A DNA stretch of 64,000 nt from Bacteroidales bacterium (GCA_017445425.1 JAFSUF010000029.1:1926-65925); one strand, 5' to 3'. Counted from the first letter of the stretch, positions 46,983-64,000 are shown. The notes: generated from the sequence alone by a model not told the origin. Numbers and translations are program-made.

Positions 46983-47960
46983 TTAAATTGACTCGATTTC
47001 CTCCTTTGACAACTGGGTTGCAGCCATAATGGTCTCAATGCTAGCTCCGATGGCCTTAAGGTTCTTGACAGTTTCTCGCCGCATCTCTTCACGCCCATCC
47101 TTGCGGCCCTTGGCCAGACCTTCTACCATCCCAGCGTCGTAGCCTTCCTTGTGGAAATACTCGCCGATAACCTTCCTGTCGTATTCGGTAATCATAGATG
47201 TCACGTATTTGCGAAGTTCCTTTTCTTCAAGTTCTCCAGTCTGAGCTATCGAGAACACATCCTCGAAGCCTGCTTGATTCACCGGCACCTATGCAAATTT
47301 ATTCAAATTTTTGAAAAGGTAGCACCATCTCTCGCGGTTTGTCTCCAGCGAATCCCAGGCATTGCGCAGCCGCGGCAGCTCTAGGAAGAAGAATCGTAGA
47401 TTCTCTGTAAGGCAATCCTGCGCGTTTGACAATTCCTGGAACTGGTAGGAGAAGAAAAACTGCCCTTTCGGAACGGAAGCACTGTGGTGCCGGATATAGT
47501 CTGCTATGCAGAGGACATACACCGGTCTCAGTAGGTAAGATTCGTCACCCCGCTCAATCTGGCTATGTACCAGAGAGCATCCGTAGAACAGCAGCCGGTC
47601 GTCCATATCCACGTCGGGCAGGCACTGCATCTCCGCAATGAACTTCTCTCCTGTACCGCGCGCTGTGCATATAACGTCGAAGGTGGCTCGTTTGTCCTTG
47701 GCGCTCATCACCGGAATCTCGTTGCCGAGGTACTCGATATCCTCAACCTGCACCGGTAGGATGTCGTTGATGAACTTGAGCAGGATGCGCTTGTGCCCTA
47801 AGATATACTTGAAGGCAAAATCTACCCTTAAGTCCATAAATGTTGACAGTTGTTCCGGATGGTCGATATAGGACTGAACCTTATCAGGCTGTTCATCGAA
47901 TTGTTCCCGCAACTGGTCTTCAATCTGCGGGTCCAGCACAAGTTTGTAGTTAGCTTTCAT
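46983..47960 (-). pseudogene. Rpn-family (PD-(D/E)XK) recombination-promoting nuclease / putative transposase, interrupted by an in-frame TAG
   Basis: ORFs 47289..47960 and 46983..47288 are contiguous and in the same frame, separated only by TAG at 47289..47291. The N-terminal part has the DFAFKYILG...FDVIC...FIAEMQ nuclease-core pattern. Confidence 0.7.
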
Positions 47961-48218: not shown

Positions 48219-48464
48219 AACTTGTAAAGCAAGAAATATCTTGAACATATAAGCGGTTGCTGTTTGTTCAATCCTGATTGAAACGTAGGAAATTTCAATA
48301 ATTGAGGATAAAGAACAAGTTTGCGCGCGCCTGCTATGCGGGCGTTACTTGTTTTCCTCAATGGGCGATTCCTACGGCCTCAATCAGAGACAAGTGACGC
48401 TCGTTTTATTTTTCGTCCGGCAACCACGAAAAAAAGTGCAACAACATTTAAAATTATATGCATT

Positions 48465-49205
48465 ATGGCAGACAAGACTAATGTTCCGGGAGTAAATGAT
48501 TTTGCTTCTGTTGAAGACCGCGGTTTAAGTTCAGATTATTATGAGAAGAAAGATCTGTCCCAAGCAGCCAGAAAAGATATTGGGGCAGGGACGGTCATTA
48601 CCGGTGAAACCGGAGAGGTTGAAGAATCGGTAAAGATTAAAACAAAGAGAGTTGAAAAAGACAAGCCGCTCCTTGGCTTCTTCTATTCTGTTTCCCGTGA
48701 CAAGTTTGGTGAATACTGGCCTTTATATCTGGGCCCCAATACCATTGGTAGGGACGGGAATAGTGATATTATCTTGAACGAAGGAACAGTATCAGGAAAT
48801 CATGCGACCTTAATTATTCATAAAGAAGATGATGGAGAGGTGTATGCCGGCATTAAGGATAATGGTTCCACCTATGGTGTCAAAGTAAACGGCAAGAGCA
48901 CCCACTTTGACGTGGTTGGCTGCAACAACATGGACATCATAAAGGTAGGAAAGAATTACGAGCTATTATTCATCCTGATTGATTCAGATCAGGTCGGCCT
49001 CAAGCCGGCAGAGAACTTCGTCGAAGTCAAGCGCGCATCATCAAAACAAGTAGATCGCCGTATTATTACCGGGCCGAGGAGCAGCGGGCCTGCGACCTAT
49101 CGTAACCCTAATAGCAGTCGCCTCGCTAATCCGTCAACAAATGACAGGACTCGCTCAATGGATGGCGAGACAGAAGACATTCACAACGGAACAGTCACAA
49201 GGTAA
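48465..49205 (+). CDS. FHA domain protein (cytoplasmic, no TM)
   Basis: Internal ATG gives MADKTNVPG... FHA core NTIGRDGNSDIILNEGTVSGNHATL...DNGSTYGVKVNG, then a low-complexity S/R/N tail. Confidence 0.8.
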   Translation: MADKTNVPGVNDFASVEDRGLSSDYYEKKDLSQAARKDIGAGTVITGETGEVEESVKIKTKRVEKDKPLLGFFYSVSRDKFGEYWPLYLGPNTIGRDGNSDIILNEGTVSGNHATLIIHKEDDGEVYAGIKDNGSTYGVKVNGKSTHFDVVGCNNMDIIKVGKNYELLFILIDSDQVGLKPAENFVEVKRASSKQVDRRIITGPRSSGPATYRNPNSSRLANPSTNDRTRSMDGETEDIHNGTVTR

Positions 49206-49214
49206 ACAGGTGAT

Positions 49215-50753
49215 ATGATACTGCAGGGAGAAATTGAGAAGCAGCACCATATTTATTACGAGTTTGAGAGGGGGAAGGAACCGATTGGTGCGGGCGGTAT
49301 GGGCACTGTATATCGCGGCCGGATGGTCGACGAGAAAACAGGTGCCTTCCGTGAAGTCGCCGTTAAAGAGATTGAACCCGAGGGGGATTACTCAGAACGA
49401 CAGACTATCTTGGACCGTGCCCGCAGAGAGGCATCGATTCAACTCCGCAACGACGATTTGGTGGAGATGCTTGGATTCGTCGAAACCACGGAGAAAAAGC
49501 TCGGAATAGAAAAGACCCGATACTATGTAATCAGCGAGTTCCTGGACGGAGTCACGCTTGACAAAGTTCTGTCAGGTGTTTATGCTGATTACAAAGGAGA
49601 GACTGTCGATTATGCCAGAGAACTGGCGGCAAATTACGGAAAAGACCGCGAAGGAACAGCAACACTGATTATCAAACATGTGCTGTCGGCAATAACTGCG
49701 CTGCACGACAACGGTTACCTTCATCGCGACATCGACCCGTCTAACATCATGATTACATCAGACGGAAAGATGAAGCTCATTGACTTCGGCATTGCCAAGA
49801 AGCAGAATTCCCTTGATCAATCAGATATGATGCAGTCTAAATCAGGCGCATTTGTCGGGAAAGTGGAATATGCTGCGCCAGAGTTGGTGGAGGGGAAGAT
49901 TACAGAACAGAACTTCACTACCGATATCTATGCAGCAGGAGTCTTGTTCTATCAACTTCTGACAGGACACCTTCCCTTTGCCGGCAACCGGTTTGATATC
50001 ATGAAGGGCCAGTTAAATGGTAAACCCGACTTCAGTAAGATACGCTCTAAGAAGTACAGGGTCATAGTTGAAAAGGCTATGTCAAAAAAACAAGCCAACC
50101 GGTTTGTTTCTGCATCTGCAATGAGGGCCGCGCTGGATGAGGAGGTTCAATCTTCGTCAAAATGGCCGTATGTGGCTGTAGTAGCGGCCGTTGCACTAGC
50201 TGCGATCATTATAGCGCTGGTTTGGCCGAAATCAGGTCCAGTTCCAGATCCAGTAGAGGTCTTTACTGAAAATGCGTTCACCGATAGCCAGGACACTATA
50301 TTGATAACATACAGTGTTGATAAGAGGGGTCAGAAGACAGAGCTCAAACGAGACACTTTGTTCGTGGCAAAACAAAAAAAGTTTGACGAGATACTGTCAC
50401 AGCCAATGGATGATATCTGGGATATGCTCTTATCAGAGGTGAACCGGTATAATCCAGCTGCCCTATATGCTGCAGCCCTCTATTATAAACGCCATGATGT
50501 TGATAGCAAAGCCAATAAATACTGGACTTCCGTTATAGTTCCTGAAGAAACTGCCAAGTATTTAAAAAAGACTAATACCAATTCTATTTCAGCACGTAGA
50601 ATTGAATACATCCTTCTATGTATGGCATACGACCATATAGATAAATCTGTCTGGTCGGATGCAGATTCCAAAGTGGTTGAAATAGAGGGTAAGATTAAAG
50701 AGATGTACAGTTCATTCTCAGAGCATTTTAAACTGCCCGCTGAACTTCAGTAA
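49215..50753 (+). CDS. Hanks-type Ser/Thr kinase-fold protein, single TM, ~170-aa extracytoplasmic domain; atypical catalytic loop
   Basis: GAGGMGTVYRG, VAVKEI, LHRDIDPSN (Asp where the HRDxKxxN Lys is expected), DFGIAK and AAPE. TM segment WPYVAVVAAVALAAIIIALVW. Confidence 0.8.
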   Translation: MILQGEIEKQHHIYYEFERGKEPIGAGGMGTVYRGRMVDEKTGAFREVAVKEIEPEGDYSERQTILDRARREASIQLRNDDLVEMLGFVETTEKKLGIEKTRYYVISEFLDGVTLDKVLSGVYADYKGETVDYARELAANYGKDREGTATLIIKHVLSAITALHDNGYLHRDIDPSNIMITSDGKMKLIDFGIAKKQNSLDQSDMMQSKSGAFVGKVEYAAPELVEGKITEQNFTTDIYAAGVLFYQLLTGHLPFAGNRFDIMKGQLNGKPDFSKIRSKKYRVIVEKAMSKKQANRFVSASAMRAALDEEVQSSSKWPYVAVVAAVALAAIIIALVWPKSGPVPDPVEVFTENAFTDSQDTILITYSVDKRGQKTELKRDTLFVAKQKKFDEILSQPMDDIWDMLLSEVNRYNPAALYAAALYYKRHDVDSKANKYWTSVIVPEETAKYLKKTNTNSISARRIEYILLCMAYDHIDKSVWSDADSKVVEIEGKIKEMYSSFSEHFKLPAELQ

Positions 50754-50772
50754 TTCTGTAATATAGAGAGAA

Positions 50773-51762
50773 ATGGAAGACGAAGTACCGGTAAGGATAT
50801 TTGACGACGACCCCAACATATATATATCGGTCTTTTATAGGGGCTGGAAGTGGTACTATTATAATCCGGATGTGAAGTGCCTGGGAGAGGGCGCCATGGG
50901 TAAGGTGTTTCTCGGCTTTGATTATGATACTAACCAAAAGGTAGCCATCAAGCAGCTGTTTGACAAGTACGCAAATGTCCGCTCTATCAGAGATCGGGCC
51001 CGGCTGGAGGCATCCCTGACATACAGCCACCCCAACTTGGTAGAGATGCAAGGCTGCTGTATGTATGAAGATGAAGAAGGCTACTGGCACGTCTGGGTGC
51101 TGAGCAAGTTTGTGGACGGGGAAATCATAAATAAGTATGTAAGCAAATTGGGGGATGACGCTAACAGGGTCCCTGTAATTGCAGGCCTGATTGGACAGGT
51201 TCTGGATGCCCTTGATTATCTTCATTCTAAGGGTGTAATACACAGGGACATAAAACCTTCAAACATAATGGTGGACCGAGATCGTCAAGTCAAACTGATG
51301 GACTTGGGCGTTGCCAGGGTTACAGGGGCAAACTCATATACCAGCAACGGATTTGTAGGTACCCCGCTATATGCCTCCCCTGAACAGATAATGCGTGATA
51401 AGATGCAGGTACAGGCAACTCCAGCAAGCGACATTTATTCATTGGGGATGACTATGTATGTCCTTTTGAATGGAGATCATCCGTTTGAAGCCCCAACCGA
51501 AGCACAGATTCTTATAAATCAGGTAACCAAAAAGCTCCCTGCATCAAAAGCCCTTGAGAAGAAATATAAGAAACTCATGAATGTGATTTGGAAAGCCACG
51601 GACAAGGATCCGGAAAACCGATATCAGTCGGCCATGGAATTCAAAAGTGCTATTGAAAGGGCTCTGACTCCGGAGCGGTCTCCATGGCTACGTAACATAA
51701 TAATTATACTAATGATGGTTGGGCTTTCTGTTCTGGCAGCAATACTAAAAATGATTTTTTAA
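50773..51762 (+). CDS. Hanks-type Ser/Thr protein kinase, C-terminal TM anchor
   Basis: GEGAMGKVF, VAIKQL, IHRDIKPSN, DLGVAR and ASPE. Terminal TM segment IIIILMMVGLSVLAAILKMIF. Confidence 0.85.
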   Translation: MEDEVPVRIFDDDPNIYISVFYRGWKWYYYNPDVKCLGEGAMGKVFLGFDYDTNQKVAIKQLFDKYANVRSIRDRARLEASLTYSHPNLVEMQGCCMYEDEEGYWHVWVLSKFVDGEIINKYVSKLGDDANRVPVIAGLIGQVLDALDYLHSKGVIHRDIKPSNIMVDRDRQVKLMDLGVARVTGANSYTSNGFVGTPLYASPEQIMRDKMQVQATPASDIYSLGMTMYVLLNGDHPFEAPTEAQILINQVTKKLPASKALEKKYKKLMNVIWKATDKDPENRYQSAMEFKSAIERALTPERSPWLRNIIIILMMVGLSVLAAILKMIF

Positions 51763-51765
51763 CAT

Positions 51766-52776
51766 ATGGCAAACGAAATAGAATCTTTCGGAATAGAGAC
51801 ACCCCTCTTTCTTAGCAACGCGGTCAGCTGCATTGGCGGCAGGGAGGAAAATCAAGATTCCACAACTATAATAGAAACAAGAAGAGGTCTTTTAGTGGTG
51901 GTATGTGATGGTATGGGTGGCATGGCTGGCGGCGCAACAGCCTCTTCTACAGCCGTAAAAGTCATATCGGAATATGTTTCTATGCTGGGTGTAGAAGATG
52001 ATATCGAAGTGGATAACCGCATGACCCTTATCAAAGCGATATCTCAAGCAAATTCCAAACTTTTTGAAATGTCCCAGACTGTCCCCGGACTGGCCGGGAT
52101 GGGTACGACGGTAACGGCCCTGTTGATTAACGAGGACAAAGCTTCAGTGGCGTATGTGGGAGATAGCAGGGTATATCAGATCAGGGGCGGACGGAAGATA
52201 TTCAGGACATTTGACCATTCTATGGTTTTCGAAATGGTCAAAAAGAAAATCATTACTGAAGAACAGGCTCGCCTCTCGTCTCAATCCAATATTATTTTAA
52301 GAGCACTTGGATTGAAAGAAGATGTCGATATAGAGACGTATGACCTACCCTATGACAAAGGGGATGTTTTTCTCCTTTGCACCGATGGTATATGGGGCAC
52401 CATGCCAGAGAAAGAATTGCTGAAAAGAGTTTCGCAGAAACAACATCCCAAGGTTATTTCCGAGACACTGGCCATGAATGTGCATAACGATGCCATACGT
52501 GCAGGTGGCGGGCACGACAACCTCACCGCTGCAATTGTGAAAACCAACATCGATTCTAAAACGAGAAGTATAATGGAAAGAAAAATCAAGACTGCATTGG
52601 CTGCATGTTTAGTGGTATTGCTGCTAAGCCTGGCCCTGAACGCCATTATGACAACAAAGGCAATCCGGACAAACGTCAAATATAATAACCTTAGAGACTC
52701 TATAGAGTCAAGCAAGAAGGTGCAGCAACCCCAAATAGATTCTACGACACTAAAGCTAAACGAACAAGAAAAATAG
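51766..52776 (+). CDS. PP2C-family Ser/Thr phosphatase with C-terminal TM segment
   Basis: VVCDGMGGMAGG, VGDSRVY, LLCTDGIW and GGHDNLTAAIV. TM segment ALAACLVVLLLSLALNAIM. Confidence 0.85.
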   Translation: MANEIESFGIETPLFLSNAVSCIGGREENQDSTTIIETRRGLLVVVCDGMGGMAGGATASSTAVKVISEYVSMLGVEDDIEVDNRMTLIKAISQANSKLFEMSQTVPGLAGMGTTVTALLINEDKASVAYVGDSRVYQIRGGRKIFRTFDHSMVFEMVKKKIITEEQARLSSQSNIILRALGLKEDVDIETYDLPYDKGDVFLLCTDGIWGTMPEKELLKRVSQKQHPKVISETLAMNVHNDAIRAGGGHDNLTAAIVKTNIDSKTRSIMERKIKTALAACLVVLLLSLALNAIMTTKAIRTNVKYNNLRDSIESSKKVQQPQIDSTTLKLNEQEK

Positions 52777-52782
52777 TATAAT

Positions 52783-53631
52783 ATGAAGAGTTACTCTATC
52801 GGAAGGGAAGAGACGTGCAATATCATCGTCAATGACCCGACACAGATGGTCAGCCGTATGCACGCTACACTTAATGTAGATGGCGGCAAAATGACCATAG
52901 TTGACAACAGTACCAACGGTACGTACATCAATGGAATTCGCATACAAAAAGGAGCACCAGTACCTGTATCCAGAAAAGATGTGGTTTCTTTTGCCCAGGT
53001 TGCAGAACTAGACTGGAACTGCGTTCCACGCTCGGACGACAAGTTACTTTATACCATCCTGGCTGTGCTGCTGTGCGTTTTGCTTGCAGGGGGCTTATCA
53101 TGGTATTTCCTAACTAAGGACAATCAGCCCAAACACCCGGACAACACAGCAGAAGAGGTGGATGTATGGAAAGGCTTTGCTTCTCACACAGACAGCCTGA
53201 AAGCAGATGTCACCTCTTTGAAAGCTGCCAAGAAGACAGCAGAGGATGACCTTGCCAAGTTAAGGAGCAGCCTGGAAGCCAAAGACCGCACCAAAAAGAA
53301 GGATAAAGACAAGGTTGAGCAAATCAACAAGAACATATGGCAGATTGAGGAATTATTGAAAAACGTTGATACTGACGATTTTGATAAGTCCATATCAAGT
53401 GTAGAGCAAAGTATAGCAGATAAATCTTCCAATACTGAAGAAAGGCTGAAGACGCTAGCGGCTAAAACTGCCGACGCCAAGGAAACTATCAAGAAAGTAG
53501 AAGAATTGCTCAAAACGACAAAAGATGAGATAAATAAACTTCCTGACCCGAAACATATAATAAATAATAATCACAGAAAGAAAAAAGATACAACTGAAAC
53601 AAAGCCAGTTATTGTAACACCTTTACCATAA
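52783..53631 (+). CDS. FHA - TM - K/E-rich coiled-coil protein
   Basis: YSIGREETCNIIVNDPTQMVSRMHATL...DNSTNGTYINGIRI. TM segment LLYTILAVLLCVLLAGGLSWYFL. About 170 aa of heptad-like charged sequence follows. Confidence 0.75.
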   Translation: MKSYSIGREETCNIIVNDPTQMVSRMHATLNVDGGKMTIVDNSTNGTYINGIRIQKGAPVPVSRKDVVSFAQVAELDWNCVPRSDDKLLYTILAVLLCVLLAGGLSWYFLTKDNQPKHPDNTAEEVDVWKGFASHTDSLKADVTSLKAAKKTAEDDLAKLRSSLEAKDRTKKKDKDKVEQINKNIWQIEELLKNVDTDDFDKSISSVEQSIADKSSNTEERLKTLAAKTADAKETIKKVEELLKTTKDEINKLPDPKHIINNNHRKKKDTTETKPVIVTPLP

Positions 53632-53644
53632 ATCCTTTAATAAG

Positions 53645-55177
53645 ATGAGACTAATAAGCATTGGGAAATCCCCGTCCTGCACTATATACATAGCCAGCGA
53701 GTATGTCAGCAACTATCATGCAGAATTGTTGTTGCTTGACAACGGCGACATTCTATTGACTGATTGCGGCAGTACTAATGGCACATTTTTAAATGGGAAG
53801 CAAATAACACCGCGAGTCGAGGTCCCTGTCCGCCGGGGTGACAGGATTGAATTTGACAACATTGCCCTCAATTGGGGCAATGTACCCCAGATCCCCCTCC
53901 CCGACCCCGCCAAGGTCAAGGGAGTTTACGGAGTAGGCAAAAGCCAGCGTAACCGATATAATCTCGTTGGAGACAGCGTGAGCCGCTATCATGCAACCTT
54001 TAAGGAGATGAAAAATGGCAAATGGTTTATTCAGGATCATAGTAAGAATGGCACTTTTGTCAACGGCTCCAAGATTCCTTCGAACCAGGACTTCCAGATA
54101 AAAGCTAAGGACAGTATTGTATGCGGCACCGTTCCGTGTCCAAATCCTGTGCCCGGCGGAACTCTCCCTTCATGGATCTGGGCAGCCGTAGGCGGGATAG
54201 CTGCGGCTATTCTGGTTTGCGTTATCTTGTCGATAATTATTCCACATAATGTAGATCCTTACAAGGCAGTTGCCATCGTCAAAGAGACATTTGCAATAAA
54301 GGTGGTTTTTGCAGATGACCCGATAGTGGATAAGCATAAATCGTGGTATCTGGCGTTGTCAAATTCTAACGCAGGGGGCTACACTTTGACGGACGATATA
54401 AGGAAGGCTTTTTCCACGCATCAGTACGGAACAGCGTTCTTTGTCTCTAAAGATGGTATGATGATTACAAATAAACATGTGGTTGATTGGATATACGCTG
54501 ACACTCATTATTCTGGCGGCGGGAAGCAGGTTGAAGATCTGAAAACACATGTTGAAAGGGCGAGGACGGATCTTTCAAATTATTTGGCTATAACCGGCAC
54601 GTTTTCAGTCGATGAAATAAACAAGTGGTATAAATCCACTTATGAGCTTTCTGTTGAGCCCCTATCTTTTGAGATAATTTATCCGGGACGTAGTTATACA
54701 GTATCGTCCCAATACGATGGGGCGCAACTGGTAAAAGTATCTGATGACCCTCAGGCAGATATAGCTATTCTCCAGCTTGACAATCAGGTGACACCATCAT
54801 TCTGTGAGTATTTTGACTTATCGCGTAGTTTGCCCGCTCATCAATTAAAGAGGAACGAGACATACTATACAATCGGATTCCCTTATGGGCCGATCGGCGC
54901 TACTCTGAACGACAATAAATATGAACCCCATTATGGCCAGTTGGTGCTGTCACAAAACCCTAAAAAATATACACTTACGTTTGACAAGTCCTCGGTAGGC
55001 GGCCAGAGTGGCTCCCCTATTTACGATAAAAAACACCGTTTGATTGGTGTTTTATACGGAACAGATGTTCTCAATGAGACCCTTGCGGCGCCAATAGACC
55101 TTGCAAAAGAGTTAATGAAGGACGTGGTTAAGGAAAATGATACATATAACAAGTTCAAATCGACAAATGCGTATTAA
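53645..55177 (+). CDS. 2 x FHA - TM - trypsin-like (S1, Trypsin_2-type) serine protease
   Basis: FHA1 is SIGKSPSCTIYIASEYVSNYHAELL...GSTNGTFLNG. FHA2 is YGVGKSQRNRYNLVGDSVSRYHATF...HSKNGTFVNG. TM segment WIWAAVGGIAAAILVCVILSIII. Protease triad context TNKHVV, DIAILQL and GGQSGSPIY. Confidence 0.8.
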   Translation: MRLISIGKSPSCTIYIASEYVSNYHAELLLLDNGDILLTDCGSTNGTFLNGKQITPRVEVPVRRGDRIEFDNIALNWGNVPQIPLPDPAKVKGVYGVGKSQRNRYNLVGDSVSRYHATFKEMKNGKWFIQDHSKNGTFVNGSKIPSNQDFQIKAKDSIVCGTVPCPNPVPGGTLPSWIWAAVGGIAAAILVCVILSIIIPHNVDPYKAVAIVKETFAIKVVFADDPIVDKHKSWYLALSNSNAGGYTLTDDIRKAFSTHQYGTAFFVSKDGMMITNKHVVDWIYADTHYSGGGKQVEDLKTHVERARTDLSNYLAITGTFSVDEINKWYKSTYELSVEPLSFEIIYPGRSYTVSSQYDGAQLVKVSDDPQADIAILQLDNQVTPSFCEYFDLSRSLPAHQLKRNETYYTIGFPYGPIGATLNDNKYEPHYGQLVLSQNPKKYTLTFDKSSVGGQSGSPIYDKKHRLIGVLYGTDVLNETLAAPIDLAKELMKDVVKENDTYNKFKSTNAY

Positions 55178-56756
55178 TAAATACATACTGACAACACTGG
55201 CGCTTACTCTTTCCATAAGCCTGAGTGCCCATACGGCCAGATGGTTGACCGCACCAAAGTATGAGTCTGCAACCCCAATATCGTCTTTATTGATCAAGGT
55301 TGAGCAAAACGGCAGGTTTGGTATTATTGATAATAATGGCTTGCAGAAGGTAGCCTGCGACTATTCGGAAATCACCGCATTCACCGGTGGGTATTGCCTT
55401 CTATTGAACGCCAATGACCAGCTTGCAGGCATCATGAATGAGCAGGGCGAAGTGACTAAAATAAATCAACGGTTCTCAATCAATGCCAGTTATCCATATT
55501 TTACCGACAATCTGCTTGCAGTATATGACGGAAAAAAATGGGGGTATATGGATACGTCCGGTCAGATTGCCATCAAAACCCAATACGAGAAAGCCAGACC
55601 CTTCTTTTATGGCGTCGCATCGGTAATCAAAACGGATGCCGTAAATAAAAAGAAATATGCTTGTTATATCAACCGCAACGGCGAGATTCTGTATAAGGGG
55701 GCTGATAATTATTTGATTTTCGCATCCTCCTATACCAAAGGTAATGAGCCGTTTGCAGTGATAGTAGATCCGGACAGAAATGTTTTCGCACGCGACGCTC
55801 AAGGCAAGCGCATCAAGAATTTGGGGAGACTGGTTGACAATAATCCAAATCAACTGATTACCAATTTATGTACAATCAATTTGTCTAATGCCGGCCAGGT
55901 CCGTTCTATGGTTTCTTCTGATGGAGAGAAAGCTTATGAAACCAACCTAATAGCACCCTATACGACAAAGGTTAACTCGCTCTCTTCGGAATCAGACCAA
56001 GGTGGATATGATCTCGTTGTAGATGGCAAGCAAGTACTACCAGGGCAGTTTGACGAACCCGCGCTTGCAGTAAGCAATTCTCGTGTTATTGCTAACAAAG
56101 GTGGTCTATATGGCCTTCTGGAGATCCTTAAAACCGGAGGGCCAAGAGTCGTATTTGCTGAATCCGATGTATTGTATGATCACCATACAAGCAAAGATAT
56201 CTCCGCAAGAGTTCAAATGCCATCTGAGCTTAATCATAATAACGTAACCGTCAGGGTCAACGAGGATGGGAACACACTTTTTGACGATGTTATAGACAAT
56301 AGCGGCAAATTCTCATTCAAATACCTGCCAATATCCCTGAAAGAGAAGGGAGAGGTCAGCTTTGATACAGAGATATCCATTGATGGCATAGTCTACCCCT
56401 CCAGCCAAGGCAATATACGTTTTGGCCACACCAATGCACTCAGTATTTCCGCTCCGGGTAAAGTCAAAGTTACAGAAACAGCTAACAACACCGGGCATAG
56501 GTTTACCGGTACATTTACTATATCGGTCACAAACAATTCCGACCAGGAGAGTGATAATTGTACTATTTGGGTTGACGGGAAGAAAGAGAAGGGTTCCGTT
56601 GTAATCCCCGCCGGGAAACGGGAAAATGTCTCTGTCACAAGAGTCGTGGATTTACAAGACCTTGATCGTAAAACAGTCAGTGTCACTGTTACGGTCAAGG
56701 AACAGGGCTGCCCTGATAAGACCGAATCTAAATCGATAGTTTTTGATAGATTTTAA
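55167..56756 (+). CDS. exported WG (KWG) repeat protein with C-terminal beta-rich region
   Basis: Internal start MRINKYILTTLALTLSISLSAHT (signal peptide). Repeats GRFGIIDNNGLQKVACDYSEI and KWGYMDTSGQIAIKTQYEKARPF. It overlaps the upstream stop by 11 nt. Confidence 0.65.
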   Translation: MRINKYILTTLALTLSISLSAHTARWLTAPKYESATPISSLLIKVEQNGRFGIIDNNGLQKVACDYSEITAFTGGYCLLLNANDQLAGIMNEQGEVTKINQRFSINASYPYFTDNLLAVYDGKKWGYMDTSGQIAIKTQYEKARPFFYGVASVIKTDAVNKKKYACYINRNGEILYKGADNYLIFASSYTKGNEPFAVIVDPDRNVFARDAQGKRIKNLGRLVDNNPNQLITNLCTINLSNAGQVRSMVSSDGEKAYETNLIAPYTTKVNSLSSESDQGGYDLVVDGKQVLPGQFDEPALAVSNSRVIANKGGLYGLLEILKTGGPRVVFAESDVLYDHHTSKDISARVQMPSELNHNNVTVRVNEDGNTLFDDVIDNSGKFSFKYLPISLKEKGEVSFDTEISIDGIVYPSSQGNIRFGHTNALSISAPGKVKVTETANNTGHRFTGTFTISVTNNSDQESDNCTIWVDGKKEKGSVVIPAGKRENVSVTRVVDLQDLDRKTVSVTVTVKEQGCPDKTESKSIVFDRF

Positions 56757-56768
56757 TACTAATTAATA

Positions 56769-57467
56769 ATGAAAAGATTTTTTTTAATCTCCCTCTGCCT
56801 TTTGTTTGGCAGTGCAGTCGGATTGTTTGCGCAGGAATTAAGCAAGGACGATTTCATAGCAAGCAGTTCCTCTGGAAGTAGCGTAGCAATGAAAATCGGG
56901 ATAGGAGCTGGCGTCAATGTAGCTGGCCTATCATCATCTAACAGCGAGTTTCCCGGCACCGGGATACGGCCTGGGTTCAACGGTGGTGTTATGTTTAATC
57001 TCCGTTTCCACCCACGTGACGAGATGTCCACCGCAGAGCAAGGGCTTTTTGCCATTCAGCCAGAAATCCGCTATTCTACAATGGGCGGTAATTCCAGTGA
57101 TTTCAAACTGGGTCTCTCCTATCTGACTGTTCCGGTTATGTTCCAGTTTTACCCGTCTGCAAACTTTTATATTGAGGCAGGCCCTGTAATGGCGCTAAAC
57201 ACATCACATACACCTAATACTACTGTTATTAACAACAAACAATATGATTTGGCCAAGTTGAAAGCCAACGATATGATGCTTGCGGCCGGAGTCGGCTTTC
57301 TTGCCGGAAATATAACTATCGGGGCCCGCTTCAACTTTGGTATCTCAGATATTGCCAGGAACATGAATTATAAGAACTGGTGCGCCCAGGCTGGCATTAT
57401 ATACAATTTCAAGTTGAAGAGCCATGAGGGGTCGGGTGTGAAAAAAGATGATGTTTTAGATTTATAA
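56769..57467 (+). CDS. small outer-membrane beta-barrel (OmpA-beta/PorT-like) protein
   Basis: Signal peptide ending LFAQE and alternating-hydrophobic strands. 232 aa. Confidence 0.55.
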   Translation: MKRFFLISLCLLFGSAVGLFAQELSKDDFIASSSSGSSVAMKIGIGAGVNVAGLSSSNSEFPGTGIRPGFNGGVMFNLRFHPRDEMSTAEQGLFAIQPEIRYSTMGGNSSDFKLGLSYLTVPVMFQFYPSANFYIEAGPVMALNTSHTPNTTVINNKQYDLAKLKANDMMLAAGVGFLAGNITIGARFNFGISDIARNMNYKNWCAQAGIIYNFKLKSHEGSGVKKDDVLDL

Positions 57468-57479
57468 AAAGAATTACCA

Positions 57480-58364
57480 ATGAAAACACGCATAATAATT
57501 CTGTCATTATTAATGACCTTGTGCAGCATTTTCTCTGCATGTGAGAACCAAGCTGTAGATATTACCGTCACTGCAGATATCACAATCAACACAGCTTCTG
57601 TGCTGGCGCCTTTTATCGCTTATGACTCTTCTGACCTGGATATGTATCCTGACAGTAAGGTCCGTCTGACATGTTTACTATATGATGCAGCGGGAGCCCT
57701 CATCAATCGACAGGACATCGCATTAAGTGATTTCTCATCGTCGGCGAATATCCAAGAGAAAATAGGGAGTCAGACATATACTCTTGTTGTAGTAGCTTCG
57801 TGCGTAAGTGGAGGGTCTTTGTTAAAGCCTGAGTATGAAGCATATTCTCTAACTGGGGTTAACAATTTGAATACTCTTAATATCGAACAAATAAAATCAG
57901 ACATATCTAAGGTGTTTGATTCTTGTTGGCAAGTTTTGGGCTTTGGCATACAAGAGAATCTGACACAAAGTGAGTATGAACCATTTATGACTCTTAAACC
58001 GGCAACCGCCCTAGTGTATATGAATTTTAGGAGCATCCATGCCAGTTCAAATATTGATCTTTATGCAATAGGCTGGACTTCAAATAATCTGATGACATTC
58101 ACTCAACAAAACGCTGGTTTTTCTTGCAACGTGGATGGAATATATGACGAATGCGACATTGAGCCTGATAGATATACATCGGAGAATCTTTATTCACTGT
58201 TTAGCGTATTCCCGGGTGAATGCCGTACTGTTGGTGCATCATTCACGGGAAATAACATTGTAGATTGGAAACAAAATAGTGTGAATGTTCAGGCTGGTCA
58301 TCAATATGTGTTCCAATATGACTGTTCTGCGGCAGCATTAACAATTAAAGAAGGAAGACTATAA
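57480..58364 (+). CDS. lipoprotein, unknown function
   Basis: MKTRIIILSLLMTLCSIFSAC lipobox with no recognised motif. Confidence 0.55.
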   Translation: MKTRIIILSLLMTLCSIFSACENQAVDITVTADITINTASVLAPFIAYDSSDLDMYPDSKVRLTCLLYDAAGALINRQDIALSDFSSSANIQEKIGSQTYTLVVVASCVSGGSLLKPEYEAYSLTGVNNLNTLNIEQIKSDISKVFDSCWQVLGFGIQENLTQSEYEPFMTLKPATALVYMNFRSIHASSNIDLYAIGWTSNNLMTFTQQNAGFSCNVDGIYDECDIEPDRYTSENLYSLFSVFPGECRTVGASFTGNNIVDWKQNSVNVQAGHQYVFQYDCSAAALTIKEGRL

Positions 58365-59353
58365 TGCGGTCCCATATCCCGTGTCTCCCGACAGTTTTCT
58401 GCCTGTGTTTTCTCATTCTTCCATCCTGCATGGAGGAGGATAAGTTTCTGGAAATACGCGAACCAGAAATTGTTGAGGTAGTGAATGATGAATATGTGGA
58501 GCAAAACCAGTGGATATATACTGTGATGAAAGTGTACTACCTGTGGAACAATCAGTTAAAGGACTCTTTGCAGTACAACTACTCACAGGAGCCAAAATCC
58601 TTCTTTTACAGTATGCTGGTTGCGGAAGACCGATTCTCGTATTGTGAAGTTAATGACGACTATGTGACAACCAAGGGCATCAACCTCAACGAAACAGTAA
58701 GGCTGGATAGCATCTATACCGTTGGAGATCGTTCCGTAGGTTATTTCTATTATACGGAATTTGCCACAGAGGCAGATGTAACCGACATAATTCTAAAATT
58801 TCAAGATGTTGACGAAGTGATTGTCGATGTCCGGGACAACCCGGGAGGTTATGTTCGCACATGTCGTTATTTATCCTCGCTATTGATTCCAGAAGAAGCT
58901 GCCGGCAAGTTATTTTGCAGTTACGAATATAACCAAACAATAAGTGCCCGAAACAGGCAGGAGACAGGGGACGAGCGTACGTATGATTACTTTTTTGATA
59001 CCCGCCTTGTCAGGGAACGAAGGCTCAATCTAGACCGGGTGTACTTCCTCACCAGCAAGTGGAGCGCTTCGTGCAGCGAACTGATTATTAGTTGCCTAAA
59101 GCCTTATATGCAAGTAATTACTATTGGCGAAACCTCGGTGGGTAAGGACGTAGGAATGAGGACGCAAAGCAGCCGGCGGTGTAAGTATGTCTTGCACCCT
59201 ATTACATTCAGGACATATAATGCTTATGATGAACCTGTCCCAACAACTGGTCTTGTTCCGGATATCTATGTAGAAAATACCAACCCTGAGTTATTGGGCT
59301 CCACAGAAGAACCCCTTCTGGGACGTGCCCTGCAAGAAATTATTAACAATTAA
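58364..59353 (+). CDS. S41-family (C-terminal processing type) peptidase lipoprotein
   Basis: Lipobox LILPSC. VIVDVRDNPGGYV, TSKWSASCSELII (Ser) and GETSVGKD (Lys) blocks. The ATG shares 1 nt with the upstream TAA. Confidence 0.7.
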   Translation: MRSHIPCLPTVFCLCFLILPSCMEEDKFLEIREPEIVEVVNDEYVEQNQWIYTVMKVYYLWNNQLKDSLQYNYSQEPKSFFYSMLVAEDRFSYCEVNDDYVTTKGINLNETVRLDSIYTVGDRSVGYFYYTEFATEADVTDIILKFQDVDEVIVDVRDNPGGYVRTCRYLSSLLIPEEAAGKLFCSYEYNQTISARNRQETGDERTYDYFFDTRLVRERRLNLDRVYFLTSKWSASCSELIISCLKPYMQVITIGETSVGKDVGMRTQSSRRCKYVLHPITFRTYNAYDEPVPTTGLVPDIYVENTNPELLGSTEEPLLGRALQEIINN

Positions 59354-59358
59354 AAGAT

Positions 59359-60675
59359 ATGATGAAATCAATAAAACACCTTTGCCTGGCGGTGGCCATA
59401 CTTGCAACAACTGCAATAAGTGCCCAGAATCAGACGATTACCCTTAAAGACGGGACTGTGTATGAAGGTTTTATATCTCGCCAGGACTTTAAAAGCGGGA
59501 TTGGCAATATTACTTACAGCAAGGTAACAAAACAGATTCCGGTAGAGCAGATTCGTGGAAGAAGGACTGAAAAACGTGAGCTTAGTACCCTGTCTAAAGA
59601 ATGGCAGACATGGGCGGAGGAGAATCACAAGATTGAGACGTCCGGTAGGGATAAGAAATATCTCTCCCTTACTAACATGACGGTTCTTGGTGTCACCAAA
59701 GATTGGTATATCCTGGTTAGTGGCAGCAAGGTTGTCACTGCCCTTACCTTGACTGAAGGTACTGATAGTTTCAGAATGTCAGATATTCAAAGCATCATAA
59801 AGCCAGAACGGGATGAGACCCTTCTTGCCGACATGGATGATATCATCCAGACCGATGCCATGACAATCACCGGTGTAGTTCTGGAGCAAAAGCCTGGTAA
59901 GTTATACACAATTTGGAATAAGGACGACAAGACTGTCCATAGCATAGATTATTCGGAGGTCCGCTCAATTGGCAAGGGTCGTCTCAATCCAGATTATAGG
60001 ATGTGGTCACAGACCCCTTTCCTTGAGCGGCTCATTCTCAAGAAAGGGCAGACAGCAACCGGCCTTATCATAGAGAATACAATCAGTCCTTCTATTAGCT
60101 TCCTTTTCGCAGAGAAAAGCGACAAGGGCGAGAGCATCCGCCAGTATTCCCTGGAGGAAGTAACCGGAGTGGAGAGATTCCGTAACGATGAGTACACTCC
60201 AGTATACGACATTGTACTTGGAGAAAACGAGTCTCGCGTCAATAGAGATAGTATTCTTGTTGAGGCGCCGATAGGGACTGTTTACACTCGTGATTCCAGC
60301 AAAGTATTCTATCTGGAACCCGATCAAACAGAAGCAATCGCAACTGTATCGGGGCCTGAGGTTACCGTTGAAACCAGCATTCAGGGGATATCTGATATAT
60401 TCGTTGCCAAATCTGTTTTAACTAAAAATGTGCCGATGAGCTATCTCAAGCCAGACACAACTGATGCTGGGAAAAAGGCTAAGAAGAAAAAAGACGAAGA
60501 AAAAGTAGATATCCAGACATTCACTTATGCAACATTGTTTGAATCTGAAATAGAAACAGAAGTGAGCACGAGCATAAACGGAACCACTAAAATCGTGTTT
60601 ACCCTTCCTGAGCCAGGTTTATACTATGTATATCTTCGACGCCTGAACAAAACATGGGCAATTAATTGGAATTAA
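59359..60675 (+). CDS. exported protein, unknown function
   Basis: Signal peptide LAVAILATTAISAQ. Repeated LKDGTVYEGFI-like beta-hairpin motifs and a K-rich patch KKAKKKKDEEK. Confidence 0.5.
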   Translation: MMKSIKHLCLAVAILATTAISAQNQTITLKDGTVYEGFISRQDFKSGIGNITYSKVTKQIPVEQIRGRRTEKRELSTLSKEWQTWAEENHKIETSGRDKKYLSLTNMTVLGVTKDWYILVSGSKVVTALTLTEGTDSFRMSDIQSIIKPERDETLLADMDDIIQTDAMTITGVVLEQKPGKLYTIWNKDDKTVHSIDYSEVRSIGKGRLNPDYRMWSQTPFLERLILKKGQTATGLIIENTISPSISFLFAEKSDKGESIRQYSLEEVTGVERFRNDEYTPVYDIVLGENESRVNRDSILVEAPIGTVYTRDSSKVFYLEPDQTEAIATVSGPEVTVETSIQGISDIFVAKSVLTKNVPMSYLKPDTTDAGKKAKKKKDEEKVDIQTFTYATLFESEIETEVSTSINGTTKIVFTLPEPGLYYVYLRRLNKTWAINWN

Positions 60676-60694
60676 TCATTAAAATTAGAGTAAT

Positions 60695-61318
60695 ATGAAA
60701 AAACTCTTTACTATAGTTGTATTATTGTCGTCGGTATTCATTGCTAATTCTCAAGTACTTGATACACCTCAACATGCAGGAAACAGCGGATCTCACAGTT
60801 TCTCATCTGTTTATTTGATTTATTCGCCGGCTAAGTACTATGGCCAGAATTCAGATTCAGATCCATTCATGAAATTCGCGATAGGAGGTGACAACGCATC
60901 ACTGCTCCCGATTGACAACTTTACTGCCTATTTCACAAAGGGGTTGATGGCAGAGTGGTATCACAAAACAGAGGATAAACTCTCAACCAATATGTTTTCT
61001 GTTAAAGCGCCCCTTAACGTGATGTTTGACCTTAAACTTTCAAATCAAATGAGCGTTCTTCCTTTTGCTGGAGTTAATGCCTCTCTTGGTATAATTGCCC
61101 GGATTGCGGATAGCTCAACTCATTACAATCTCTATAGTAAGGATGACATGGGCGATTACGCTCTTAGAAGGTTTTTGGTGGGTTGGCAAATCGGGACCCG
61201 CATTAACTACAAAGGATTCTATGGTATGGTTTCTTTTGAGAAGTCATTCATGGATGCTGGCAAGAATCTAGATTTTAAGCTGGGTGGAGTCAATATAGGA
61301 ATAGGCAAGTATCTGTAA
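60695..61318 (+). CDS. small outer-membrane beta-barrel protein
   Basis: Signal peptide ending IANSQ. 207 aa with a beta-strand pattern and an aromatic residue near the C-terminus. Confidence 0.5.
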   Translation: MKKLFTIVVLLSSVFIANSQVLDTPQHAGNSGSHSFSSVYLIYSPAKYYGQNSDSDPFMKFAIGGDNASLLPIDNFTAYFTKGLMAEWYHKTEDKLSTNMFSVKAPLNVMFDLKLSNQMSVLPFAGVNASLGIIARIADSSTHYNLYSKDDMGDYALRRFLVGWQIGTRINYKGFYGMVSFEKSFMDAGKNLDFKLGGVNIGIGKYL

Positions 61319-61347
61319 CCTGAATAGACCAAATAATAATACTGAAG

Positions 61348-61373
61348 GTACCCGGCAACTTCCGGGTACTTTT
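61348..61373 (+). terminator. intrinsic terminator ending the 12-gene run
   Basis: GTACCCGG / CCGGGTAC 8-bp stem, 6-nt loop, then TTTT. This is the first spacer longer than 19 nt since 48465. Confidence 0.65.
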
Positions 61374-61405
61374 AATTGTTTAAGTCTTTTTTAGTAAACC
61401 TACAT

Positions 61406-62031: not shown

Positions 62032-64000
62032 ATGAAAATGAGATTGCTACATAATCAGTTGTTCCCACTGCTCATTCTATTGTTTTTTGCTCCTGCCGTA
62101 TCAATCGCTCAGGAGAACGCAGATTATGAGCAGGCCCTCAAATATTATAAGGCAGGTAATGATTATTATGCCCATCAGAAATGGAAAGAAGCTTTAGACT
62201 GTATGAAAGAGGCGCGGATAGGCTTCCATAAAGCCGATGACAGGTATTATGAGATGCAATCCATCTGGGGAATAGCGACAATCGAGGGCCTGCATCTTTT
62301 CCATTTGCCGGAGGCCTTACAGGCATACAATGAGGCAGCGCAACTTGCCGATGATCCATCCGACCTGATGGAGATGTTGAAAGAGCAGCAGAAGGTTTGC
62401 GAACGATTTGGGGCAATGGAAGAACTATGGAAGGTGTCGGAACGGATGGACTCCCTTTTGGCCTTTTCTGACGCCCCTATCGTTAAATATAAGTACAATA
62501 CTACAATGGGGGATCGGGCAATGGCCCAAAAGCGATATGATGTGGCGGAGAGATGGTATCTCAATAATGAGGCCTTGCTTGAGCAGCTGCCAGAGAAAAG
62601 CTATTATTATCACTATAATAATCTAAGATGGTTTTATATTAAAACCGGGAATTGGGAGTTGGCGTTAAAGTACGCAGAGCTGGCTAAGCAGTCTTTTCAA
62701 CAGTACCATGCACCGACACCGTCTACGTTTTTACACTATTCACCCTACGTCTATTTTGCAGATATTTATAAACGCAAGGGTGATCGCGAGAAATGCTTTG
62801 CCTATATGGACAGCTTGTTTGCCGTGCTCCCATATCTGGAGGAGCCAAGGGAAATAAGTACGTTGTATACTCTCCGAGCCGTGAATCATAGGGCTTTTGG
62901 AGAACATGATCGTGCAATTGAAGACTTCAGGACAGCATACGATGTTGTGAAAGCCAAGTATGGAGAAGATGATGCCGATTGTATAGATTTGTTGCCGTTA
63001 CTTGCTAATCAGGAGTATAATTTAAAAAATTACGAAGAATCTGTACGCTTATATCGTCAATATGCCGAATATGAAGGGTTGACAAAAGGGAAGAACAGTG
63101 CCGATTATGTAAGCGCCTTGGATATGTTGGCCACCGCCGAAGCTTCTGCTGGACAAATTGAGTTGGCATGTGATGTTTTTGCAGAAGCCGAGAGTTGTTT
63201 ACAGGAGCAGATCCGTAGTAAGTGGCCCTACCTTACCGGCACAGACAGGGAGGGGTATTGGACGAATTACTCCGATTTACTCTTGCGTATGGCGCCCTTT
63301 GCCTTAACGGCGCAACAGTTTCAGACACCATATACCGAAATAAGCTATAATGGGTTGGTTTTGTCCAAGGCATTCTTGTTGGCTTCGGAGCAATCAACAT
63401 ATAGTTTGATAAAGAACAATGGTACCAAGGATGACTTAAATGACTATGCCGCCATACTGTCTATGCAATCTTATGTAAAACAGTTGGTGGCTGAAAAGGC
63501 TCATCCCGACAGTATTCTAGCATCGATGAAACGGGTACATCAACTTGAAACCGACTTGACAAGCCGATGCCGTTCATACGGAGAAGTTACGTCATTTATG
63601 GAGGTTGACTATCAGAAAGTGAAACAGTCGCTTCACGATGGGAATGTGTTATTGGATTTTACCGATTTTGTGCCGGGAAACGGAAGTCGGGTATATGCTG
63701 CTTATATCATAGACAACAGACAGGAGTATCCTCTCCTAAAAGAACTGTTTACAGAAAGTAGCATTGATTCTTTGAACGTTAGCCAGCCGCACCAGTACTA
63801 TTCCGGGCACTATGGAGATGCCTTATATAGGCTTCTGTGGGAACCGTTGAAGGATTATGTCAAGGAAGGTGATGTCGTTTATTATGTGCCCTCCCAGTTT
63901 TTGTTCCAGATAGCGCCGGAGGCACTGCCTGCAGGCGATGGTTCGCATCTTGGCGATCATTACCATTTCGTGCGACTTTCATCAGCAAGGGAATTGGTTA
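62032..64000 (+). CDS. exported TPR-repeat protein running into a CHAT (caspase-fold) domain; 3' end outside the window
   Basis: It is not in the ORF track because there is no stop in the window. My translation from the ATG at 62032 stays open to nt 64000. Signal peptide LFPLLILLFFAPAVSIAQ and about 400 aa of TPR-like helices. The CHAT-entry pattern follows: VLLDFTDF...VYAAYII...VVYYVPSQFLFQIAPEAL. The His/Cys dyad would lie beyond the window. Confidence 0.6.
   Translation, partial: MKMRLLHNQLFPLLILLFFAPAVSIAQENADYEQALKYYKAGNDYYAHQKWKEALDCMKEARIGFHKADDRYYEMQSIWGIATIEGLHLFHLPEALQAYNEAAQLADDPSDLMEMLKEQQKVCERFGAMEELWKVSERMDSLLAFSDAPIVKYKYNTTMGDRAMAQKRYDVAERWYLNNEALLEQLPEKSYYYHYNNLRWFYIKTGNWELALKYAELAKQSFQQYHAPTPSTFLHYSPYVYFADIYKRKGDREKCFAYMDSLFAVLPYLEEPREISTLYTLRAVNHRAFGEHDRAIEDFRTAYDVVKAKYGEDDADCIDLLPLLANQEYNLKNYEESVRLYRQYAEYEGLTKGKNSADYVSALDMLATAEASAGQIELACDVFAEAESCLQEQIRSKWPYLTGTDREGYWTNYSDLLLRMAPFALTAQQFQTPYTEISYNGLVLSKAFLLASEQSTYSLIKNNGTKDDLNDYAAILSMQSYVKQLVAEKAHPDSILASMKRVHQLETDLTSRCRSYGEVTSFMEVDYQKVKQSLHDGNVLLDFTDFVPGNGSRVYAAYIIDNRQEYPLLKELFTESSIDSLNVSQPHQYYSGHYGDALYRLLWEPLKDYVKEGDVVYYVPSQFLFQIAPEALPAGDGSHLGDHYHFVRLSSARELV

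Follow-up and report, generated by a model that had tools for sequence, protein, structure and literature searches.

DegS and AlgW, two proteases of the HtrA family (MEROPS S1C), are signalling proteases in envelope stress; each combines an inner-membrane anchor with a periplasmic protease of the chymotrypsin fold and has essentially no cytoplasmic part. FHA domains are found on membrane proteins of other kinds: Rv1747 of Mycobacterium tuberculosis carries two of them at the N-terminus of a membrane ABC exporter and is regulated by a Hanks kinase, and the type III secretion system (T3SS) proteins YscD, PrgH and EscD join a cytoplasmic FHA fold, the pocket of which is degenerate, through a single transmembrane (TM) segment to a periplasmic domain. 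To our knowledge, hardly anything has been learned about Hanks-kinase/FHA signalling in Gram-negative gut commensals. In this work we analyzed a DNA stretch of 64,000 nucleotides from a Bacteroidales bacterium (GCA_017445425.1 JAFSUF010000029.1:1926-65925; this whole stretch is referred to as the window, and positions are counted from its first letter). One of its genes, designated F (53645..55177, + strand), encodes two FHA domains fused through one TM helix to an S1 protease and is a fixed core member of a conserved Bacteroidales kinase/FHA envelope operon.

The open reading frame (ORF) of gene F starts with ATG, is intact and encodes 510 amino acids (aa) with the domain order FHA-FHA-TM-Trypsin_2/S1 protease. 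The Pfam FHA model matched it with E=6.6e-35 (119.8 bits against a cutoff of 20.7) in two stretches, aa 4-70 and ~96-162, corresponding to FHA domain 1 (53654..53854) and FHA domain 2 (aa 96-162; 53930..54130), while Trypsin_2 (PF13365) matched aa 262-469 with E=5.9e-12 (47 bits against 27.6) over its full profile (1-144). Between them lies the only hydrophobic segment (aa 176-198; 54170..54238), with a Kyte-Doolittle mean of 2.9 in a 19-residue window; it is a helix in the AlphaFold2 (AF2) model of F, which was built from 81 homologues and has a mean predicted local distance difference test (pLDDT) score of 93.5. Hydropathy analysis revealed no N-terminal signal peptide in F. Two FHA domains, one hydrophobic helix and a protease with His, Asp and Ser in this order had been described in the earlier note on this DNA; all the motifs quoted there are present in the translation, and Pfam agrees with them.

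A database protein identical to F (P0001, from a 76-kb metagenome contig) is labelled 'FHA domain-containing protein [Bacteroidales bacterium]'. The same architecture was revealed in 511 proteins of a collection clustered at 90% identity (E<=0.001); the 120 listed homologues contain both FHA and Trypsin_2, and in all of them (120/120) the hydrophobic segment begins at residue 174-187. When the protease module alone (aa 199-510) was searched against 1.84 billion representative proteins, 370 relatives were found. In total, 146 new representatives, at 50% identity, were classed: 84 of them are FHA-FHA-TM-protease proteins, six have a single FHA domain (FHA-TM-protease) and 56 have none. Recurrence of the architecture across 511 proteins and at least 84 clusters is far beyond chance. 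All parts of this system are of known kinds (FHA, S1 protease, Hanks kinase/PP2C signalling), and the fusion and its operon are abundant and generically annotated. A published description of the FHA-TM-protease architecture or of the operon was not found in literature searches on FHA and trypsin, Bacteroides Hanks kinases, T6SSiii (the class iii type VI secretion system, T6SS) and TssNOPQR, and neither is covered in the conflict-system papers of the Aravind group that we consulted.

The S1 (chymotrypsin-fold) protease domain was assigned to aa 257-483 (54413..55093) by Trypsin_2, profile alignment and Foldseek. Its catalytic triad is composed of His278 (codon 54476-54478), Asp372 (54758-54760) and Ser455 (55007-55009). 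These residues are unchanged in 120/120 closest homologues and in 88/88 homologues encoded in the loci described below; among 85 sequences at 50% identity (84 representatives and the query) His was found in 84, Asp in 85 and Ser in 84. Location of the triad in S1 catalytic positions had been set beforehand as a test of the proposal. A profile of 13 diverse protease domains of the F type was aligned with PDB entries, and the three residues fall on the catalytic residues of Spl proteases: TN(K/R)HV is opposite TNKH39 of SplA, D(I/V)A(I/L)L opposite D78 and G-x-SGSP opposite GNSGSP (we take the SplA residues to be His39 and Asp78). The profile also aligns the triad motifs with those of SplC, glutamyl endopeptidases, DegQ and AlgW. 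Judging from the intact and conserved triad, the protease looks catalytically active.

The top 50 Foldseek matches for the F model were all HtrA-type S1 proteases (including DegP, DegQ, DegS, AlgW, MucD, HtrA1 and plant Deg), with a probability of 1.00, a best E value of ~2e-9 and TM-scores on the target of at most 0.74; as modelled, the fold is HtrA-like. Membership of F in the HtrA family (S1C) was rejected, because the PDZ domain is missing and the family models fail. No PDZ domain was detected in F by Pfam, its position in HtrA being taken by the single helix of aa 484-508, and the NCBIfam HtrA/DegP models gave 16-19 bits against cutoffs of 416-470 (degP_htrA_DO, 19.1 against 416; SerProtHtrA, 18.3 against 470).

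Three further elements accompany the protease. At its N-terminus the extracytoplasmic module has a beta-rich extension (aa 205-256; 54257..54412), with strands at 209-222, 234-238 and 246-249 in the AF2 model and the conserved motif DPYKA...F.DDP; this extension is also part of the module in lipoprotein-type relatives. The helical insertion of ~50 aa that separates the catalytic His from the Asp (aa 282-329; 54488..54631; helices 282-290, 294-317 and 322-329 in the AF2 model) is family-specific; owing to it the His-Asp spacing in F is 94 residues, and family members differ in its length, the alignment widening to 753-778 columns. The amphipathic helix at the C-terminus (aa 484-508; 55094..55168) was likewise recognized in the AF2 model. 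F resembles DegS and AlgW, which are among its best structural matches, in the combination of a likely inner-membrane anchor and a periplasmic chymotrypsin-fold protease, but differs from them in 175 residues of putatively cytoplasmic FHA, in the single C-terminal helix instead of PDZ and in the helical insert. By sequence profile, the C-terminal half of F is nearer to the S1B Spl and glutamyl endopeptidases than to HtrA.

F is likely a bitopic inner-membrane protein with the FHA pair in the cytoplasm and the protease in the periplasm (N-in/C-out), since most of its relatives without FHA start with a lipoprotein- or signal-like sequence, its folded N-terminus of 175 residues has no signal peptide and its operon partners B-E and G-L are predicted to be membrane-borne or secreted. 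Among the 56 non-FHA relatives, 28 have a lipoprotein-like start, seven a signal- or TM-like start and ten are fragments; the presence of a lipoprotein or signal start in 35 of the 56 argues that the protease module is normally located outside the cytoplasm. As for the partners, the products of genes B, C, D and E contain a single TM each, and those of the downstream genes G-L begin with signal- or lipoprotein-like sequences. The orientation proposed earlier, with FHA inside and the protease outside, therefore stands as likely on the evidence of the relatives' signals and the operon partners, although counts of K and R around the TM helix do not favour it.

The relatives without FHA are uncharacterised. 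They share with F the same extracytoplasmic module together with its N-terminal extension (profile matches of ~300 residues); a lipobox or signal peptide serves as their anchor, or else they possess other N-terminal domains. In three of them (P0253, P0294 and P0296) we noticed by eye, in place of FHA, a GYF_2-type-looking segment (YYY..G...GP......W..G...W) in front of the protease module. These GYF-like relatives suggest that the module was reused behind different cytoplasmic peptide-binding domains, which also agrees with an extracytoplasmic location of the protease.

In the AF2 model, aa 2-70 and 91-165 contain beta strands only (pLDDT 89-97), as in the FHA beta-sandwich, and the FHA sequence of F aligns with Rad53 FHA1, GarA and other PDB entries. 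It is also matched over its cutoff by the Pfam model Yop-YscD_cpl (PF16697; 55.3 bits against 33.2), which covers FHA domain 1. The pocket residues of the Ser-x-x-His and Asn-Gly motifs (S22, H25 and N45 in domain 1; S113, H116 and N135 in domain 2) are invariant or nearly so: S113, R114, H116 and N135 do not vary in 81 aligned homologues, and S113, R114 and N135 do not vary in 120. The Arg of the G-R motif that binds phosphothreonine (pThr) is absent from both domains of F. In the alignment with Rad53 FHA1, K8 of F is opposite the phosphate-binding R70, and K99 occupies the equivalent position in FHA domain 2.

This position is variable within the family. Among the 120 close homologues it is occupied in domain 1 by K (41), R (41), S (27), T (6) and other residues and in domain 2 by K (90), T (20) and S (10), with Arg never found. 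In the 85 sequences at 50% identity the counts are R 50, S 27, K 7 and T 1 for domain 1 and S 34, R 19, T 17 and K 15 for domain 2. In the 88 locus homologues Arg is present in 50 copies (57%) of domain 1 and in none of domain 2 (S, T or K), the commonest pairs being (R,S) in 40, (S,T) in 15, (K,K) in 12, (R,K) in 5 and (R,T) in 5. The earlier note had proposed that a phosphorylation state is read by F and had itself named loss of the pThr-binding residues as evidence to the contrary; Ser, His and Asn turned out to be kept, and the phosphate-binding Arg is replaced by Lys. Phospho-reading by the FHA pair is plausible from the sequence, and it may still occur because Lys keeps the positive charge; phospho-gating of F is uncertain because Lys replaces Arg in both domains. 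The FHA domain of gene E, on the other hand, has the full canonical set (G-R, S-R-x-H and N-G), and that of gene A has G-R and S-x-x-H.

Rv1747 is similar to F in having tandem N-terminal FHA domains on a membrane-embedded effector. This effector is a transporter in Rv1747 and a protease, probably periplasmic, in F; Rv1747 has a long Thr-rich disordered linker, while the FHA domains of F are separated by ~25 aa and lack the Arg. YscD, PrgH and EscD resemble F in the succession of a cytoplasmic FHA fold, a single TM and a periplasmic domain, but their periplasmic part consists of ring-building motifs and that of F is an enzyme. No T3SS genes were found in the cluster or in 89 related loci as annotated.

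To characterize the genetic context of F, we compared 89 loci, comprising 80 species-representative genomes and nine metagenome-contig loci that carry F itself or any of three F homologues. The core of the operon (A, at least one serine/threonine kinase gene (STK), D, E, F and K) is present in 79-87 of the 89 loci, co-directional and with its gene order unchanged (A in 79, D in 87, E in 82 and K in 82-84), and gene E, where present, is always located directly upstream of F (82/89 loci). Other genes are less constant: G was found in 59 loci, H in 53, I in 38 and J in 18. The carriers belong to Bacteroides, Phocaeicola, Prevotella, Xylanibacter, Alloprevotella, Paraprevotella, Alistipes, Odoribacter, Barnesiella, Muribaculaceae, Tannerellaceae, Cryptobacteroides and Lentimicrobiaceae; a few matches under other taxon labels are probably mis-binned contigs. 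Cultured carriers include Phocaeicola intestinalis Sa1CVN1 (L032, T6SS-linked, with ClpV after the operon), Bacteroides rodentium JCM 16496, Prevotella pectinovora P4-76 and Xylanibacter caecicola PCHR, which makes the idea of a kinase-coupled protease open to genetics.

Three types of the operon were distinguished. Type 1, to which the window belongs, has the order A-STK1-STK2-D-E-F-G(WG repeat)-H(outer-membrane barrel)-I(lipoprotein)-[J S41 peptidase]-K. Type 2 (Prevotella-like) is organized as A-STK-(STK)-D-E-F-K-(E2)-D'-STK-BACON / G-H-c14-M6 peptidase, and type 3 (Alistipes/Odoribacter-like) as A-D-E-F-K-STK-c13-Zn ribbon-c19-TssR-ABC ATPase-c17. Gene K adjoins F in types 2 and 3. The six-gene core module links phospho-signalling components of the cytoplasm with two proteases of the envelope and a number of secreted proteins. 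It had been proposed that two kinases and a PP2C are encoded immediately upstream of F; all three genes are there, but the FHA-TM gene E lies between the PP2C gene and F, and a further FHA gene (A) heads the cluster upstream of the kinases.

This gene set recalls the mycobacterial cluster FhaA-FhaB(FipA)-PstP-RodA-PbpA-PknA-PknB, which also includes two FHA proteins, one of them membrane-anchored, a TM-anchored PP2C and two Hanks kinases. The Bacteroidales operon differs from it in the absence of SEDS and PBP genes and in the protease fused to FHA; moreover, the mycobacterial FHA domains keep the Arg that those of F do not. The operon described here is sporadic and low in GC and looks horizontally acquired, not like a housekeeping one. 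The best NCBIfam match of the FHA region of F was FhaB_Rv0019c (NF049868), and membership of F in the FhaB/FipA equivalog was rejected on score (72.6 bits against a cutoff of 125).

A further parallel concerns type VI secretion. The pathway of the Pseudomonas aeruginosa H1-T6SS (PpkA, PppA, Fha1/TagH and TagQRST) includes a Hanks kinase with a TM and a periplasmic domain, a PP2C, an FHA protein and periplasmic or outer-membrane accessories, and here too a Hanks kinase, a PP2C and an FHA protein are encoded in one cluster. It differs in having no protease component, while in the Bacteroidales operon E and F are FHA proteins with a membrane anchor and the T6SS of the relatives is of class iii. 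Membership of F and E in the TagH family (TIGR03354) was rejected on score (55.1 and 53.5 bits, respectively, against a cutoff of 120.25); in F the match includes a stretch in FHA domain 2 (aa 97-162). The Pseudomonas pathway is summarised in a 2026 review of T6SS accessory factors (PMC13584744), in which no phosphorylation pathway is listed for Bacteroidota T6SSiii. The paper on the T6SSiii membrane complex mentions neither FHA nor kinases, and we found no published phosphorylation pathway for T6SSiii in the literature.

Within the operon and its 10-kb flanks, T6SSiii genes were revealed in 24 of the 80 species-representative loci (~30%). In 16 loci, 14 of which come from species-representative genomes, K is directly followed by the genes for ClpV, a 148-aa ORF, TssC and Hcp (e.g., L008, 16757-21343), and a TssR gene (Pfam TssR, TssR_VWA and TssR_C) is located inside the operon in 10 loci (L040, L043, L051, L053, L056, L077-L079, L081 and L087; e.g., L053, 15535-17958). 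TssR adjoins the ABC ATPase and c17 genes; an ABC ATPase is a component that type 3 operons share with the Pseudomonas pathway. The sole untruncated copy of c17 has TM helices at ~29 and ~386, a layout that recalls MacB/FtsX-type permeases, and the ABC ATPase and c17 together recall TagT/TagS. A T6SSiii-linked phosphorylation module is the most consequential lead of this work. The linkage is not uniform: neither the loci of the closest relatives of F (>46% identity, L010-L019) nor Prevotella-type loci contain T6SS genes in the flanks examined.

Taking these data together, F is most likely a processing protease of the periplasm that is tethered to a kinase complex. The FHA pair would dock F onto a kinase/FHA complex on the cytoplasmic side of the membrane, either depending on the state of threonine phosphorylation that the kinases and PP2C establish or in a partly phospho-independent manner, as may be expected from the replacement of the canonical Arg by Lys. 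Docking would position or gate the protease, which could then cleave a co-encoded partner (K, the WG-repeat protein, the ectodomain of E or that of the sensor kinase), and this cleavage would propagate or reset a signal. The likely output would be control of a T6SS or another envelope process, as in the PpkA/PppA/Fha1/TagQRST pathway. We hold the whole scheme, an envelope-spanning Hanks-kinase module with F as its tethered protease acting on an envelope partner, with moderate confidence, as having a somewhat better than even chance. A bolder version of it is rather doubtful: F would be the output enzyme of an unrecognised pThr pathway of Bacteroidales, and phospho-gated transmembrane proteolysis, directed from inside to outside, would license or reset the T6SSiii membrane complex or another envelope machine. 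If the FHA pair does gate the protease, it would represent a new route of information from cytoplasm to periplasm, the reverse of DegS/RseP-type signalling.

Several observations weigh against the tethered-protease scheme. Both FHA domains have Lys (K8 and K99) where canonical ones have the phosphate-binding Arg, and in 26 of the 88 locus homologues both sites are taken by non-basic residues. The positive-inside rule is uninformative for F and gives no support to its N-in orientation. Finally, no match to ClpV, TssC or Hcp was found in the window and no T6SS Pfam family among the called genes of the next 10 kb of the contig, so that a T6SS output may not apply to this genome.

In the main rival, which we consider improbable, the FHA pair would be a degenerate, phospho-independent scaffold similar to that of YscD/PrgH, serving only to anchor F, whose protease would act constitutively in maturation or quality control of the operon's secreted proteins, while A and E read phosphorylation. 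It agrees with the Arg-to-Lys replacement in both domains, with the lack of Arg in FHA domain 2 of all 88 locus homologues and of any basic residue in the 26 just mentioned, with the Yop-YscD_cpl match over its cutoff and with the better preserved FHA motifs of E and A. A purely structural FHA fold would not be expected, however, to keep Ser, His and Asn nearly invariant or the S113-R114 pair invariant in 120 homologues; Arg is found in FHA domain 1 in 57% of the locus homologues and in 50/85 sequences at 50% identity, and Lys retains the positive charge. A second possibility, which overlaps with the tethered-protease scheme and which we regard as unlikely in its strict form, is that the module is the T6SS threonine phosphorylation pathway of Bacteroidales and that F is a dedicated T6SSiii accessory, a factor of assembly or remodelling that acts here on a T6SS encoded elsewhere in the genome. 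ClpV/TssC/Hcp or TssR genes within 10 kb of 24/80 species-representative loci, TssR inside the Alistipes/Odoribacter-type operon beside an ABC ATPase and a TM protein recalling TagT/TagS, and the TagH-model stretches on the FHA domains of E and F, under cutoff as they are, all point in this direction; the lack of T6SS genes in and beyond the window, in the flanks of Prevotella-type loci and in those of L010-L019 points away from it.

The remaining alternatives are much less probable. The module could belong to a conflict or abortive-infection island, sensing an attack on the envelope by a phage or toxin and triggering neighbouring death effectors; we consider this very unlikely. It lies in a low-GC block (0.44 against 0.54) beginning at ~48 kb, it is followed by variable genes of the appropriate kinds (CHAT-TPR and Peptidase_C14 here; TIR, SIR2-TIR and nSTAND1-WD40 in L003), and its kinases match PADLOC kinase models, if only generically. 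However, PADLOC gave only generic kinase and protease domain matches and no system-specific match or defence system, the effectors downstream do not recur together with the module and are separated from gene L by a terminator-like hairpin, and the conserved partners are envelope proteins, which is atypical of defence systems. Still more remote is an inverted topology in which a cytoplasmic (C-in) protease degrades phosphoproteins captured by FHA. It would fit the TM flanks of the 120 homologues in their mean content of K and R (1.3 on the N side against 2.0 on the C side) and the strongly basic C-flanks of some members (e.g., KRYMGRGDRGGK), but the net charge of the same flanks leans towards N-in (+1.05 against +0.28). 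This topology would also require 175 residues of folded FHA to leave the cell although they lack a signal peptide, and would place them where pThr ligands are absent; it disagrees with the lipoprotein or signal peptides in front of the protease module in 35/56 non-FHA relatives.

The operon of the window consists of genes A-L (48465-61318), which are co-directional and separated by gaps of 3-19 nt or overlap. At its head is gene A (48465..49205, +), encoding a soluble FHA protein (Pfam FHA); its ORF is open from TTG at 48321, the likely start is the ATG at 48465, and the 5' extension contains a GC-rich hairpin (48327-48345). Gene B (STK1; 49215..50753, +) encodes a Hanks kinase (Pkinase, E=4.6e-37) with a TM at ~aa 319 and an extracytoplasmic domain of ~170 aa, and gene C (STK2; 50773..51762, +) a tail-anchored Hanks kinase (Pkinase, E=1.5e-45) with a TM at ~aa 309. 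Gene D (51766..52776, +) encodes a PP2C phosphatase with a C-terminal TM (Pfam PP2C_2; 198 bits with the Stp1/IreP model against a cutoff of 230). The product of gene E (52783..53631, +) is composed of an FHA domain (E=9.5e-18), one TM (aa 88) and a coiled-coil, lysine-rich extracytoplasmic tail.

The two kinases differ in their catalytic motifs. STK2 has the loop HRDIKPSN and is canonical except for DLG. The loop of STK1 is atypical, HRDIDPSN, with Asp instead of the Lys of HRDxKxxN, and the HRDxDxxN form is present in 96 of 97 homologues. In STK1 homologues (L003-L089) VAxK and DFG are kept, and the Gly-rich loop is found in most copies checked. In most type 3 operons the HRDxD kinase is the sole one; from this, STK1 could be either an unusual active kinase or a pseudokinase.

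Gene G, as called (55137..56756, +), shares 41 nt with the 3' end of F and encodes a secreted WG-repeat protein (WG_beta_rep, E=3.1e-19); translation from an alternative ATG at 55167 yields a typical signal peptide (MRINKYILTTLALTL...). It is followed by genes for a small outer-membrane beta-barrel protein (H; 56769..57467, +; OMP_b-brl_2, E=6.6e-18) and a predicted lipoprotein with an N-terminus ending in ...SIFSAC and no family match (I; 57480..58364, +). Gene J (58364..59353, +) encodes a peptidase of the S41 C-terminal-processing type (Peptidase_S41 and Pept_S41_N), the best NCBIfam match of which, the GFO_1087 family, is under cutoff (173 bits). It is the second envelope protease of the operon, and a two-protease cascade of F and J is conceivable.

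The core partner K (59359..60675, +) is a secreted all-beta protein, modelled by AF2 as a string of small beta modules with pLDDT 86.4. No PDB fold reached E<=1e-3 with this model; the similarities revealed were weak and of the Tudor/KOW/Ig-like kind, and K may represent a new fold arrangement. We also considered K as an analogue of TssN/O/P/Q or as a TagR-like protein, and dropped both identifications as no PDB fold match identifies K. Gene L (60695..61318, +), for a small secreted or membrane protein with an N-terminal hydrophobic segment, probably closes the operon; after it, at 61343-61374, there is a terminator-like hairpin, the stem of which is 13 bp long. No Pfam or NCBIfam family match of genes I, K, L and M reached its curated cutoff.

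The GC content falls from ~0.54 to ~0.44 at the start of the operon (~48 kb) and does not rise again within the window. Directly upstream, on the opposite strand, there is a PDDEXK_2 gene (46983-47960, -), presumably of the Rpn/transposase-like family. This drop in GC and this neighbour suggest horizontal acquisition. Downstream of the operon (62032-64000 of the window and beyond; L090, 10627-14292) we found genes for a 928-aa TPR-CHAT protein and a caspase-like Peptidase_C14 after it, as well as unknowns and Big_2/BACON proteins. In L003 the equivalent position is occupied by TIR, SIR2-TIR and nSTAND1-WD40 genes, and it appears from this difference that genes of the conflict type vary beside the module.

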